Shown: one piece after another, positions 24,570 to 29,942 of the stretch
Position numbering within the stretch: position 1 is the first letter of the stretch
How the letters are laid out: each line of letters starts with the position of its first letter
Origin: a virus
Reading direction: 5' to 3' (one strand)
Length of the DNA: 64,000 bases
IMG/VR virus record: IMGVR_UViG_3300045988_135203
Location: 113,699 to 177,698 of that record
Position numbers and translations under genes: made by a program
Notes under the pieces: model-generated
Database searches by the model: none
What the model was told of the DNA's origin: nothing
Seen by the model: only the letters and a program-made list of their open reading frames with translations

Positions 24570-26951
24570 TCATACTTTTGTTATTGAACTAATATTACCG
24601 TGCTTAATTAACTGATTTCCAATAGCATTTCTACCTTGTAAAGGAATATCTTTAGCAGAAATACAAATTGAGTTTGGTACTCCTACCAGAAGAATAGAAT
24701 CTTCATCAGAAATTAAACTTGCACCAATAACTTCTCCAGATACATCTGTCGGTTTATAACAAATTAAGCCTTTTCCTGCTCGTTTTTGTCTAATAGCTTC
24801 TTTAAGAGAAACTTTCTTTCCGAGACCTTTCTCAGAAATAATAGCAATTTGGTCATCTTCATGACGAATCGGTAAAGCTGAAACGACCTCATCTCCATCT
24901 GCAAGATTAATACCTTTCATGCCCATCGTCGCACGAGAGCTAGAAGTAATTTCATTAGAAGCAAATCTAATCATCATACCTTTTTTAGTGATAAGAAGAA
25001 TATCTTCATCCTTAATAAGATTTACAGAGGCTAAACTATCATCTTCCCGCAAATTGATTGCCGCAAGACCTGTTTTCTTTTTAGTCTTAATATACTCTTC
25101 AAGACTTGTTTTCTTAACAACACCATTTTTAGTTGCAAATAAAACATAATTTGCATCAGTATCTCTATAAATAGAATAAATGAGAGTTGGCTTTTCATCA
25201 CTTTCCATTTCAATGAGAGATTGTAATGACTGACCTTTAGTAGTATTTGTTCCTACTGGAATATTATCAACTAAAATACGATACATTTTACCCTTATTTG
25301 TAAATACCATAAGAGAGTCAATAGTATTTGTACGGATAACCGCAGATACAACATCATTTTCAGTTTTAATGCCTTTTCCATTTCTTCTTTGTGTGCGGAA
25401 ACTAGAACTTGGGATTCTCTTAACAAGACCACCCTCTGTCATAACCACAACACACTTTTCTGGTTCTACAAGCGCAATTTCTTTCTCTTTATTAGATAAA
25501 TCAATTTGAGTCAATTCTGTCCTTCTAGTATCTCCAAACTTATCGACAATCTTTTTAAGTCTTACTTTAAGCTCTTCTTTCTGAATAGATTCATCTGAAA
25601 TTAATGCTTTTAAATCTGAAATTGTAGAAATAAGTTGCTTTTCCTCATCTTGAAGTTCTACTTTCTCGAGATTCGCTAAGCTTGATAATCTCATTGCTAA
25701 AATAGCTTTAGACTGTTTTTCAGTAAATTTATATCTTTCAATTAAAGCATCTTTAGCTACTGCCGCACTTGCAGATTTCTTAATTAAAGCAATAATATTA
25801 TCAATATCTTCAAGAGCTTTTAAAAGACCTTCAACAATATGAAGTCTATCCTCGGCTTTTGCTAAATCAAATTTAGATTCTTTAATGATACATTTAATAT
25901 TATGGTCAACATAAATCTTACAGCAATCTTTAAGATTTAGCTCTGTTGGAGTTCTATCTACAAGTGCAATCTGGTTATATGAAAAAGAATCTTGAAGTCT
26001 TGTTCTGGCAAAAAGCATTTTTACAACTGCTTCTGGATTCGCCTTTTTCTCAACTTCAATTACAAGCTGAACTCCTTTCTTATCTCCTTCATTTCGTATG
26101 TCAGTGACACCAGTAATATCACCTTTTTCACAAGCTACTCCAATTTCTTCCATAAGTTTCTCAATGCGAGTTCCATATGGTACTTCTGTAAATATAATAT
26201 TCTGACCAGAAACATTATATTTACCACGCACTTTTACACTTCCATGTCCAGTACGCATAATATTTGGAATATCATTTTTATTAATAATGATTCCACCTGT
26301 TGGAAAATCTGGTCCAGGTAACATTGGTTCTTTGCCATCCATATAATCATAAATAGCATCCGCAACTTCTCTTAAATTATGAGGAGCCCAAGAACAACCC
26401 ATTGCCCATCCAATTCCTTCATTTGGATTACAAAGAAGGTTTGGAAAAACCGCAGGCAAACTTACTGGCTCTTTTTCTGTTTCATCATAATTTGGAATAA
26501 AATCAACATTTTCTTTTTTAATTCCAGCTAAAAGACCTTCTTCAGCCAATTTGGTAAGACGAATTTCTGTGTAACGCATTGCAGCCGCACCATCTCCACC
26601 AATATTACCAAAATTACCATGTCCATCAAAAATAGGATAACGCATAACCCAAGGCTGTGTTAATCGTACCATTGCCCCATAAATAGAACTATCACCATGA
26701 GGATGATATTTTCCCATTGTATCTCCAACAATACGGGCACTTTTTCTATGCGGTTTACTGGAAGAAGTTCCAGTTTCCCACATATCATATACACTACGTT
26801 TTGCTACTGGTTTAAAACCATCTGCTGCATTTGGCAAGGCTCTATCTGTATTAACTGCCATACCATATTCAAGACTATTTCGATATTGCTCATCTGTAAT
26901 ATCATTTGTTGTCCATAAATCATTCTGCATTATACATTGCTTCCTTTCCAT
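24570..26951 (-). CDS. gyrA: type IIA DNA topoisomerase subunit A (GyrA/ParC/T4 gp52-like)
   Basis: 793 aa; catalytic Tyr motif AAMRYTEIRL; C-terminal beta-pinwheel-like repeats. Confidence 0.85.
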   Translation of the reverse strand: MERKQCIMQNDLWTTNDITDEQYRNSLEYGMAVNTDRALPNAADGFKPVAKRSVYDMWETGTSSSKPHRKSARIVGDTMGKYHPHGDSSIYGAMVRLTQPWVMRYPIFDGHGNFGNIGGDGAAAMRYTEIRLTKLAEEGLLAGIKKENVDFIPNYDETEKEPVSLPAVFPNLLCNPNEGIGWAMGCSWAPHNLREVADAIYDYMDGKEPMLPGPDFPTGGIIINKNDIPNIMRTGHGSVKVRGKYNVSGQNIIFTEVPYGTRIEKLMEEIGVACEKGDITGVTDIRNEGDKKGVQLVIEVEKKANPEAVVKMLFARTRLQDSFSYNQIALVDRTPTELNLKDCCKIYVDHNIKCIIKESKFDLAKAEDRLHIVEGLLKALEDIDNIIALIKKSASAAVAKDALIERYKFTEKQSKAILAMRLSSLANLEKVELQDEEKQLISTISDLKALISDESIQKEELKVRLKKIVDKFGDTRRTELTQIDLSNKEKEIALVEPEKCVVVMTEGGLVKRIPSSSFRTQRRNGKGIKTENDVVSAVIRTNTIDSLMVFTNKGKMYRILVDNIPVGTNTTKGQSLQSLIEMESDEKPTLIYSIYRDTDANYVLFATKNGVVKKTSLEEYIKTKKKTGLAAINLREDDSLASVNLIKDEDILLITKKGMMIRFASNEITSSSRATMGMKGINLADGDEVVSALPIRHEDDQIAIISEKGLGKKVSLKEAIRQKRAGKGLICYKPTDVSGEVIGASLISDEDSILLVGVPNSICISAKDIPLQGRNAIGNQLIKHGNISSITKV

Positions 26952-27328
26952 ATGCTTTTAAAAACTGCTTACGATAATCAGCACTTGCACCCATCATCTG
27001 AATAAATGCTTTATTTGCGGCTTCTGCATCTCTTACAGTAATTTTATCTATTACACGACGGTCTGGGTCAGTAAGACACTCTTCTGTTTCTTCAACACCC
27101 ATTTCTCCAAGACCTTTCATACGACCAACATCATATTTTTCAGATATATGTGCTGCACGATATCTTTCAAGTTCTATATCATCTCTTAAATAAGTATAAG
27201 ATTTACCATTTTTTTCAGTTATCTTATACAATGGCGCACGTCCTGCATAAACATACCCTTGCATTAAAAGTTCTGGACATACATTCCAAATAAATGTATA
27301 AAATAAATTTTTAATATGAGCTCCATCG
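26920..27328 (-). CDS. gyrB: type IIA topoisomerase subunit B, exon 2 (C-terminal 136 aa); track ORF 26920..27342 includes 14 in-frame intron nucleotides
   Basis: C-terminal GyrB motifs AHIKNLFYTFIWN..LMQGYVYAGRAPLYKI and RMKGLGEM; joins in frame to exon 1 giving ..IMSDADVDGAHIKNLF.. Confidence 0.75.
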
Positions 27329-28422: not shown

Positions 28423-29942
28423 ACGTCCGCATCAGACATAATAATAATCTTACCATAACGTAATTTATTCATATCATATTCAATCTTATTATTTACTACA
28501 CTCCAACCATTAGGTCCAAAGAAAGCATCCATAATAGTTGAAATCTCAGCATTTTTAATTACCTTATCTACTGTCGCATCTTGCGTATTTAACATCTTTC
28601 CACGAATTGGCATAACTGCCTGATAACGTTTATTTCGTGCATCCTTTAACATTCCAGAAGCAGAATCTCCCTCTGTAATATAGATTTCACATTTCATACG
28701 GTCTGTTTTTTCTGAAGCATCTGCAAGTTTACTATCAAACTTTAATGCTTTACTTTTCTTTTCTGCTTTTGACCTTGCGGCTTCACGAGCTTTTTTTGCC
28801 GCATTTCTGGCTCTTCGCGCAAGTAAAGCTTTTTCAATGATAGTTTTTACATCTTTTGGATTCTCATTCATCCATTCAACGAAGTTTACATTAATCGCTT
28901 CAAGAATAAGAGCCTTATCAATGTCTGTTACACGCACCTTAGTCTGACTATCATATTTAACAGATTTTGCTTTTAAATTAAATACAATAATCAATCCTTC
29001 ATTTAGCTCCGCGCCAGTCAAGTTTGTTTCATCTTTTTTATATAACTTATTATCATTTGCATATTTATTTAATGCACGAGTTAAGTTTGCTCTAAGTGTA
29101 GTAAGATGAATACCACTCTCTACTTTACCATAATTAACATAACTTACAATATCTTCTGAATAACCAGAAGTATAAGTCATACAAATATCAATTAAATCAT
29201 TACCTTTGACAATATGTGCATTAAAACGCTTTTTGATAATTTCATCTTCTTTAACTTTTTCATCCACGAGATCATTAATACCATTCTTAGAATGAAAGTC
29301 TTCTTCTTTTCCATCAACAATTAATTTAATTGTCAAAGTTGGACTGAGTGCAGATTCCTCTTTAAATAATGTGCGGACGTCATTCAAATTTGCTTCTGGA
29401 TTTTGAAAGAATTGCGGGTCTGGAATATAAGTTACTTTTGTACCATGAATTCCAGTCTTTTCTTTGGTAATTTCTCTTTTCTGAAATAATCCATCTTTAT
29501 ACCAAAGAGTTTCTCTTTGACCTTTTCCATCAGACGTGGTAATCATTGAACTAGATGAAAGATAACAAACAAGTTTCATACCAATTCCATTAAGTCCAAG
29601 CGCACTACCACCATAAATAGAATCATCAGAATCGTCATATTTACCAGAAGTATTAATTACTGAAAAACATTCAGAAAGCATTGTTTCACCATCTGGTCTT
29701 TCTACCCCTGGAATAAAACCTTGTGCAAAATCTTCACAAGTATATTCATTTTTCTTTGTATCCACAGTAATGACAATTTCAGTTCCATGACCGATAATAT
29801 GCTCATCATGTGCATTTGCAAATAGCTCTTTTAAAAGCTGTGTACTATATTCAGTAGAACCGCAATATGTACTAGGTCTTTTTCTTGTAAATTCTCTAGC
29901 ATCAATATGTTGCGTACTATTCTCATTATACTTTTTTGACAT
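28423..29942 (-). CDS. gyrB: type IIA topoisomerase subunit B, exon 1 (ATPase + Toprim; track ORF 28389..29942 reads through into the intron)
   Basis: N-terminal GHKL ATPase motifs (ELFANAHDE.., GLNGIG), Toprim region, ends ..IIIMSDADV at the splice site. Confidence 0.8.

Follow-up and report, generated by a model that had tools for sequence, protein, structure and literature searches.

A probable td/Twort-type mobile group I intron within the Val507 codon of a phage gyrB gene

We analyzed a stretch of viral DNA comprising 64,000 nucleotides (nt) (IMG/VR record IMGVR_UViG_3300045988_135203, positions 113,699 to 177,698; hereafter the window, in the numbering of which all positions are given), where a first-pass annotation made from the letters alone had noted a gyrB-like topoisomerase gene that is interrupted by an insert. 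We find that this gyrB gene is very probably split, within the codon for Val507, by a mobile group I intron of the td/Twort (IA2-like) type. The reading rests on a core of covarying helices and on an exact intron-less allele, which together support the earlier proposal that the insert is a group I intron in which a GIY-YIG homing endonuclease is encoded. The element is conceptually not new, group I introns with homing endonucleases being classic in phage DNA-metabolism genes, and it would add gyrase B to the phage genes that serve as intron homing sites.

The gyrB junction and its intron-less allele

Two open reading frames (ORFs) on the minus strand encode the pieces of GyrB. The first (28389..29942, 517 amino acids (aa)) matched DNA_gyraseB and the first two thirds of Toprim in Pfam and has the C-terminus ..IMSDADVSNTAYERLFA before its stop, while the second (26920..27342, 140 aa) matched DNA_gyraseB_C, the C-terminal domain of GyrB. 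Joining U28423, at the 3' end of exon 1 (..GAUGCGGACGU), to C27328, at the 5' end of exon 2 (CGAUGGAGCU), removes an insert with CAGUAAUA as its first and ..AACACG as its last bases, and gives a frame of 1,929 nt encoding a 642-aa GyrB that reads ..KIIIMSDADVDGAHIKNLF.., whereby ..SDADVDGAHI.. is restored. The break falls in the DADVDG metal-binding motif (DxDxD) of Toprim. Only junction offsets 0 and +1 recovered ..DADVDGAHI.., and only at offset 0 did the exon end in U and the intron in G. Upon re-reading of the sequence, the earlier coordinates of the ORFs, the 1,094-nt insert and the junction at 28423/27328 were found to be exact, and the restored motif with its terminal U and G held as well, offset 0 being unique in this respect.

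It had also been noted that the insert contains stop codons, and the gyrB frame indeed enters it for 10 codons and then terminates. This frame with its stop codons means that the insert cannot be an intein, an element reported for the GyrB of some bacteria; nor did we find any reverse transcriptase ORF or Rfam group II match, as would be expected of a group II intron, and we give neither of these other intervening elements any credence. The description of the insert as having GC-richer flanks was correct for the 3' part of the intron (40.7% GC) and incorrect for the 5' part (32.4%, equal to the exons at 32–34%), with the endonuclease ORF at 27%. No terminator-like sites were found between the exons, in line with a single transcript, and promoter-like sites were not enriched (25 found vs 20 expected).

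A search of IMG/VR using the spliced GyrB protein returned five loci. In one of these (L001), with both exons at 93–95% nt identity to the window, gyrB was continuous over the site (GACGT↓(T)GATGG, the arrow marking the insertion point here and below), its junction being ..GATGCCGACGT↓TGATGGAGCA.. vs GATGCGGACGT↓(1,094 nt)↓CGATGGAGCT in the window, with the break at the same nucleotide. Comparison with intron-less alleles, proposed in the first-pass annotation as a check, hence yielded an exact empty site. Another locus (L002) had the same intron at 96% identity, and since L001 is empty and L002 filled, the insertion is real, nucleotide-precise and variably present in close relatives. The same 1,094-nt intron occurred in three independent contigs (the window, L002 and L024) with a ribozyme identity of 96–97%, and the changes among the copies preserved pairing, such as a G.U in P8 of L024. 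Near-identical contigs are present in metagenome 3300045988, UViG_3300045988_150395 being one of them.

Two further loci (L003 and L004) had an uninterrupted gyrB, the 3' third of which is a divergent allele. Seen against these, a mosaic boundary lies within the gyrB of the window at 28781 and downstream, with 91–94% identity over the first 1,320 nt compared followed by ~67% over Toprim, the C-terminal part and the beginning of gyrA. Such a drop in identity suggests that allele exchange may have occurred around the intron-prone gyrB region. The window and L001 differ at 13 positions over the 100 nt that follow the site vs 2 over the 150 nt that precede it; a co-conversion tract was considered for these and rejected as inconsistent, since the intron-bearing L024 shares several of the positions with L001.

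A covarying group I core and its detection

Homologues of the intron were retrieved with a DNA pattern derived from two conserved blocks (TATCGACTAT..GAGATAGTC), giving 29 IMG/VR loci of which ~25 were homologous introns, and blastn revealed additional ones in the Enterococcus phages EF1/EF5 and in Lak megaphages. A scan of contigs from metagenome-assembled genomes with the pattern gave 69 matches vs ~130 expected by chance, four of them having the internal motifs of the family. The pattern CGACTAT N{80,110} GAGATAGTC had zero matches and was uninformative, its allowed spacing being too tight for the real gap of 118, and a megablast search of the locus against phage records gave no match. Altogether 21 homologous introns were collected, from other phage contigs and one cultured phage. 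For the alignment, helix strands were taken at positions set by invariant anchors and strung together with constant spacers, resulting in 18 distinct rows from the 21 introns, with L008 excluded since one hairpin was absent.

Across the 12 helices of this alignment, standard pairs filled 98.0% of the cells, compared with 77.6% in shuffles (none of 500 reaching the observed value) and 32–41% in a control having the partners slid by 1–3 columns. Compensatory changes on both sides were seen for 31 of the 51 pairs, and the covariation score was 0.588 vs 0.179 in the control. The covarying helices were P3, P3.1, P5, P6 (GGG/CCU, GUG/CAU and GGC/GCU), P7.1, P7.2, P9.0 and P9, with P4 (CGGG/CCCG) and P7 (GACUAU/AUAGUC) being invariant; the CGACUAU...AUAGUC of P7, forming the R and S sequences of the guanosine-binding site, was identical in all 18 sequences. 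P3, formed between a 5-mer situated 3 nt ahead of the first hairpin and a 5-mer one base past a conserved GAAA, paired at five of five positions in 20 of the 21 homologues using 11 different combinations (for example AGACU/GGUCU, ACACU/GGUGU, CCUUU/AGAGG, UAUCC/GGAUA and UGGUU/AGCCA), and together with P7 it interlocks into the group I pseudoknot. The core helices, P3-P8 and P4-P6, stand in the canonical order. Alternative P3 pairings of the 3' half with either the GCU before J3/4 or the GGU after the first hairpin were discarded, as they showed no covariation. Every one of the 21 homologues had a G immediately before its 3' junction. The P3-P7-P9 core, the lack of which the first-pass annotation had given as grounds for abandoning its reading, was accordingly found to be present by covariation over 18 distinct homologues. 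A profile of the relatives built without window-like copies also recognized the window, with expectation values (E) of 5e-46 for the 3' part and 7e-13 for the 5' core.

At the 5' splice site of the window, a wobble pair (U28423.G28412) is followed by a C28422-G28413 pair on the intron side. The guide sequences of the homologues matched their host exons in eight exon contexts, with UGUU/GACA vs UAUU/GAUA within the helicase group, and were located only 2–5 nt upstream of P3, with no P2 between P1 and P3. For that helicase group a 5' splice site at ..KRV↓ was rejected because it gave no P1, and the site was shifted 15–18 nt upstream to ..KYV↓F, where UGUU/GACA covaries with UAUU/GAUA and the fit to the Walker-B region of DnaB is better. 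Both P2 and P3.1 are optional group I elements (PMC3873408), so the absence of P2 bears on the subgroup assignment only. We assign the intron to an IA2-like (td/Twort) type because P7.1 and P7.2 follow P7 and because the ORF occupies the P6 loop. In the 5' part, thermodynamic folding alone (z = -4.0) recovered P1, the two hairpins after P3 and the one over the ribosome-binding site, and in the 3' part (z = -1.7) it recovered P7.1, P8, P9 and both P7.2 hairpins. Most relatives have a simple covarying hairpin as the second one after P3, the enlarged form of the window being shared with the introns at the gyrB DG↓(A/S)HI site. A scan of the window found no further group I cores. The elements of the locus are compiled in Table 1, together with the sites used by related introns.

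Table 1. Elements of the interrupted gyrB gene and target sites of the intron family
Feature	Position	Strand	Details
gyrB exon 1	28423..29942	minus	codons 1-506 and first two bases of Val507; 3' end ..GAC GU
Group I intron, 1,094 nt, probable IA2-like (td/Twort type)	27329..28422	minus	
gyrB exon 2	26920..27328	minus	last base of Val507, then DGAHIKNLF..RMKGLGEM..; includes stop codon
P1	28422..28426 with 28409..28413	minus	exon ACGU (28426..28423) and intron C28422 vs internal guide GGCGU
P3	28399..28403 with 27391..27395	minus	AGACU with GGUCU; covariation
P3.1-like hairpin, first after P3	28382..28395	minus	CGCUU AAUC AAGCG; covariation and fold
P3.2-like hairpin, second, enlarged, 72 nt	28307..28378	minus	closed by AAAAAUUUUU/AAAAAUUUUU
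J3/4	28302..28306	minus	GCUAA
P4	28297..28301 with 28262..28265	minus	CGGGG with CCCG
P5, 11-nt GAAA-tetraloop receptor	28288..28293 with 28270..28274	minus	CCUAAG with UAUGG
P6	28258..28260 with 27492..27494	minus	GGG with CCU; endonuclease ORF wholly in loop
Hairpin over ribosome-binding site, 10 bp	28212..28240	minus	UUCUCUUUCA-(9 nt)-UGAAGGAGAA; -12.1 kcal/mol; in minimum-free-energy and centroid folds
GIY-YIG homing endonuclease ORF, 236 aa	27496..28206	minus	in P6 loop
P7	27481..27486 with 27358..27363	minus	GACUAU with AUAGUC; invariant
P7.1	27458..27480	minus	covariation
P7.2, branched	27401..27453	minus	sub-helices covary
P8	27370..27389	minus	
P9.0	27354..27356 with 27330..27332	minus	GUG with CAC; covaries (GGU/ACC, GUC/GAU, GCG/CGC)
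P9 hairpin	27338..27353	minus	GAAA loop; one G.G mismatch
Intron-terminal G	27329	minus	
Target site, GyrB Toprim	G425↓D426 in window numbering		EG↓DSA; L005
Target site, GyrB Toprim	G448↓K449 in window numbering		RG↓KILNV; L006, L029
Target site, GyrB Toprim	within V507		DADV↓DG; window, L002, L024
Target site, GyrB Toprim	G509↓A510 in window numbering		DxDG↓(A/S)HI; L027, L051, L063, L076
Target site, DnaB-like helicase			KYV↓FHDYIH; nine loci
Target site, DnaB-like helicase			SATQxxG↓; L010
Target site, DnaB-like helicase			LRG↓SKAIAD; L017
Target site, PolIII-alpha			Enterococcus phage EF1 (L035)

Several observations weigh against a group I intron. The Rfam model RF00028 found no match in the window at its gathering threshold, gave a truncated match of 12.5 bits (E=0.64) with the 5' half of the insert and nothing with the 3' half, and found nothing at E<0.1 in the ORF-less relatives. 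The profile of the relatives fell upon the homologous motifs when run on T4 td and was not significant there (E=0.23 and 3.5). P1 is short, having four contiguous pairs and one on the intron side, and a test of cognate vs non-cognate guides was weak (4.7 vs 3.1 pairs). The window copy has a U.U mismatch in P5 as well as the G.G in P9, all other core pairs being intact. Support for the two helices P3.1 and P9.0 also leans towards the model, since the 5' strand of P3.1 was put where it paired best when different loop lengths were allowed, and continuity of frame decided which 3' splice sites were used for the relatives.

The search with RF00028 of 27329..28422, suggested in the first-pass annotation, was thus without a significant match. 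As a control, the proven T4 td intron was also below the cut-off, scoring 40.3 bits against 50 with only its 3' half sensibly aligned. With td failing in this manner and the ORF-less relatives scoring nothing, we attribute the negative result to a sensitivity limit of the model. RF00028 misses the whole intron family, including its ORF-less members, so that counts of gut-phage introns based upon it alone would be too low, and phage genomes probably contain more such introns than are annotated. Weak Rfam matches of the window, the insert or its halves to the greA leader, U11 and SNORA41 were regarded as chance.

When Rfam was run on 17 related loci, two ORF-less group I introns did pass (L016 11195..11522 at 71.8 bits and L009 6670..6961 at 61.7 bits), being outside the present family and elsewhere in the contigs. 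As they share contigs with members of the family, these phages carry several types of intron.

Could gyrB instead be a truly split gene? Both pieces are ORFs with start codons of their own and the insert has no significant Rfam match, as would fit an arrangement where a free-standing GIY-YIG gene separates a 517-aa N-terminal from a 140-aa C-terminal fragment (AUG at 27342) and the two assemble without RNA splicing. Precedents for split genes are the T4 topoisomerase genes 39/60 and nrdA of Aeromonas phage Aeh1, split by mobE. We nonetheless consider such an arrangement very improbable here, because the 383 bases of the insert outside the ORF hold a conserved and covarying ribozyme fold that a simple spacer would not need, the AUG at 27342 is situated in the 3' strand of P9 without a good Shine-Dalgarno sequence, the break cuts through a codon at the center of the DxDxD metal site, and ORF-less relatives of 283–348 nt interrupt genes in which there is no endonuclease at all.

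Less probable still, in our view, is that the intron has decayed and splices poorly, with this gyrB copy being a pseudogene or helper-dependent. The mismatches in P9 and P5 could be taken as signs thereof, and the family does decay, many relatives at the helicase site having degenerate endonuclease ORFs of 44–83 aa. Against this, neither exon is disrupted, the endonuclease ORF is intact, the other core pairs are kept, and all three contigs with the 1,094-nt intron have retained it at the high ribozyme identity and with the pairing-preserving changes described above. Nor did we come across another gyrB in those ORFs of the window that were examined, only part of the ORFs being annotated.

The endonuclease and a proposed course of splicing and homing

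The ORF within the insert had been designated GIY-YIG, which was borne out by a match of its residues 2–85 to Pfam PF01541 (E=1.5e-11). Its best family match was phrog_7168 'homing endonuclease' (E=4e-33), and the only significant solved structures were those of the I-TevI catalytic domain (1MK0/1LN0, E ~9e-11), with the GIY, YIG, Arg, Glu and Asn positions all present. The C-terminal ~140 aa (residues ~95–236) contain two ~50-aa repeats (NGRAKLTEEDVINIRKAY.. and GASAKLSDEEVILIRKRY..), matching phrog_517 'HTH DNA binding protein' weakly (E=1.7e-4) and no Pfam family. The hairpin preceding the ORF buries, in the predicted fold, the Shine-Dalgarno sequence GAAGGAGA found 7 nt upstream of the endonuclease AUG. 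Translational masking of intron ORFs is known in T4, where the ribosome-binding site of the td intron ORF is masked, and by analogy the predicted hairpin may have a similar role.

Self-splicing of the gyrB intron, activity of its endonuclease and homing are inferred from the sequence, and could proceed as follows. The whole gyrB region would be transcribed as one pre-mRNA, in which the intron RNA would fold into the P1-P9 core, with U28423 pairing with G28412 of the guide, P3 and P7 making the pseudoknot, the GAAA loop of L9 docking onto the P5 receptor, and P9.0 placing the terminal G27329 in the guanosine pocket of P7. Free guanosine would then start two transesterifications, by which the 1,094 nt would be removed and ..GACGU joined to CGAUGG... 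In the spliced mRNA, ..UCUGAUGCGGACGU should be directly joined to CGAUGGAGCUCAUAUU, where unspliced RNA should continue into CAGUAAUACGG, and the spliced product would encode the uninterrupted 642-aa GyrB. In the full-length transcript the ribosome-binding site of the endonuclease would be masked by the hairpin. In a mixed infection, the endonuclease might cut an intron-less gyrB, such as that of L001, near the insertion site, upon which repair from the intron-bearing copy would spread the intron. Enzymes of the I-TevI type cut ~23–25 nt upstream of the site of insertion.

The frame of exon 1 passes through the guide sequence and the 5' strand of P3 before its UAA stop (28386..28388, minus strand) in the loop of the first hairpin. 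As this frame runs through both elements, ribosomes on unspliced RNA would unfold P1 and P3, and the AUG of the ORF covering exon 2 (27340..27342, minus strand) sits in the 3' strand of P9; these positions hint at a possible interplay of translation and splicing in the gyrB intron.

A second GIY-YIG domain is encoded elsewhere in the window, at the C-terminus (aa 241–319) of a 329-aa ORF (20788..21777, minus strand), the N-terminal 240 aa of which are membrane-anchor-like followed by a long coiled coil. Because no DNA-binding domain follows its GIY-YIG domain, this protein is not a typical homing endonuclease.

The intron family, known systems and the phage

In 20 of the 21 relatives, a long open frame extended across the predicted junction. 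For L028 (IMGVR_UViG_3300045988_173202), the predicted junction restored no ORF. The members sit at codons for catalytic residues, namely in the EGDSA, PxRGK and DxDxD motifs of Toprim and in three motifs of DnaB-like helicases (Table 1), with L016 and L020 being in two host genes beyond gyrB, helicase and PolIII-alpha. The intron at the EGDSA motif (L005 894..1846 in IMGVR_UViG_3300044856_000322) is 953 nt in length, interrupts a divergent gyrB allele (HICEG↓DSAASG), carries a GIY-YIG ORF of 187–191 aa and has a guide, UUGCCC, fitting its own exon GGGU↓AA. Introns at the DG↓(A/S)HI site, only 7 nt downstream of that used in the window, are the closest relatives of the window intron, with 70–81% identity to it in the 5' part vs 48–58% for the rest. 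There are hence four sites within 85 codons of GyrB Toprim, and whether one intron lineage has been repeatedly retargeted within this single domain is a question on which we see the scales evenly poised.

The presence of the endonuclease gene varied. Four introns in the family were ORF-less, at 283–348 nt (L076 among them), with the ribozyme kept, and at the PxRGK site the endonuclease ORF was broken in L006 and intact in L029. The helicase-site introns of L008, L009, L012, L015, L023 and L031 span ~1,030–1,070 nt with longest ORFs of only 44–83 aa, and by their sequences their endonuclease genes have decayed with retention of the ribozyme. The DnaB-like helicase gene of the window (14931..16478, minus strand) is uninterrupted at the three corresponding sites (LYV↓FHDYIH, SATQLNG↓ and LLRG↓AKSIAD), which in related contigs are filled by family introns (L008-L031, L010 and L017, respectively), and in contig UViG_3300045988_131786 the helicase gene is interrupted by an intron (L013) and gyrB is not (L003). 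Patchy presence, together with endonuclease ORFs that are intact in some members and decayed in others, gives the pattern of mobile introns. If the endonucleases are active, the family would offer a natural series in which the target of the guide moves along with that of a distance-cutting GIY-YIG enzyme, over 7 nt or over tens of codons, and sister introns at neighboring sites could serve for studies of how homing endonucleases and guides change their targets.

The T4 td intron with I-TevI (IA2) is similar to that of the window in splitting a phage DNA-metabolism gene at codons for catalytic residues, in having its GIY-YIG ORF in the P6 loop, and in having P7.1 and P7.2 between P7 and P3'. 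The P4/P4' and P7 sequences are identical, the motifs AGUAGGG and CGAAA (before P3') are shared, and the common core motifs comprise AACGGGGAA, AAUCCCGUG, CGACUAUCCC, GGAGUAGGG, CGAAA and GAUAUAGUC, as well as GA(U)AUAGUC; the catalytic domain of I-TevI could be aligned with the window endonuclease at E ~1e-10, and the C-terminal half of the window endonuclease, with its two repeats, had no match to I-TevI in the sequence search. The td host gene is that of thymidylate synthase and not gyrB. The window intron further differs from td in lacking P2 between P1 and P3, in having two P3.1-like hairpins between the 5' strand of P3 and J3/4, in its branched P7.2 with an extra hairpin having a conserved 15-nt loop, and in a 3' end made up of a single P9 with P9.0, no helices being found downstream of P9.

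The Staphylococcus phage Twort orf142 introns, of subgroup IA2 and with the crystal structure 1Y0Q, resemble the window intron in their compact core with a P7.1-P7.2 subdomain, in the CGAAAU directly before P3' and in the docking of the terminal G with P9.0; they differ in that they have a P2 before P3, are without P3.1-type hairpins and reside in a host gene other than gyrB. The nearest relative in a cultured phage is the PolIII-alpha intron of Enterococcus phages EF1/EF5 (MF001358, MF001361), with 75% identity over the 3' 168 nt, which in EF1 shares the P1-P3-P3.1 layout, holds an ORF of 222 aa in its P6 loop and differs in its host gene, PolIII-alpha. In that genome (L035 2189..3166), PolIII-alpha is annotated as three coding sequences with the intron in the second gap, its ORF as a 'hypothetical protein', and no intron is annotated. 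For the window gene, gene callers would make the same error, reporting a truncated GyrB, a small fragment of the GyrB C-terminus and a stray endonuclease.

Lak megaphages carry a related endonuclease and a related 3' half of the intron. Group I introns are abundant in gut jumbo 'Jug' phages, where they and homing endonucleases often break up essential genes, and metatranscriptomes confirmed the splicing of many of these introns; the hosts there are terL, nrdD and DNA polymerase, not gyrase, and the introns, on average ~206 nt, were detected using covariance models (PMC12880540), whereas the present family escapes that of Rfam. IA2 has been reported for over half of viral group I introns (PMC11835236), and a 2014 review names the usual targets as polymerases, ribonucleotide reductases and terminases. 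The searchable literature yielded no phage gyrB with a group I intron, which is weak evidence given its incomplete coverage.

The window encodes PolIII-alpha, NrdD, an NAD-dependent ligase, a RecJ-like protein, a DnaB-like helicase, GyrA and GyrB, RNase H and 16 tRNAs. Because of its PolIII-alpha, NrdD, NAD-dependent ligase and DnaB-like helicase, the phage is not T-even-like, T-even-like phages being those for which the first-pass annotation had named topoisomerase genes as homing sites, and no phage record exceeds 31% identity to its GyrB. The 16 tRNA genes form a cluster at 54048..63796, all on the minus strand. Two encoded proteins were unexpected in a phage, one of 821 aa having a major vault protein shoulder and repeat domains (48121..50586, minus strand) and the other a 513-aa SPFH/flotillin protein (35257..36798, minus strand).

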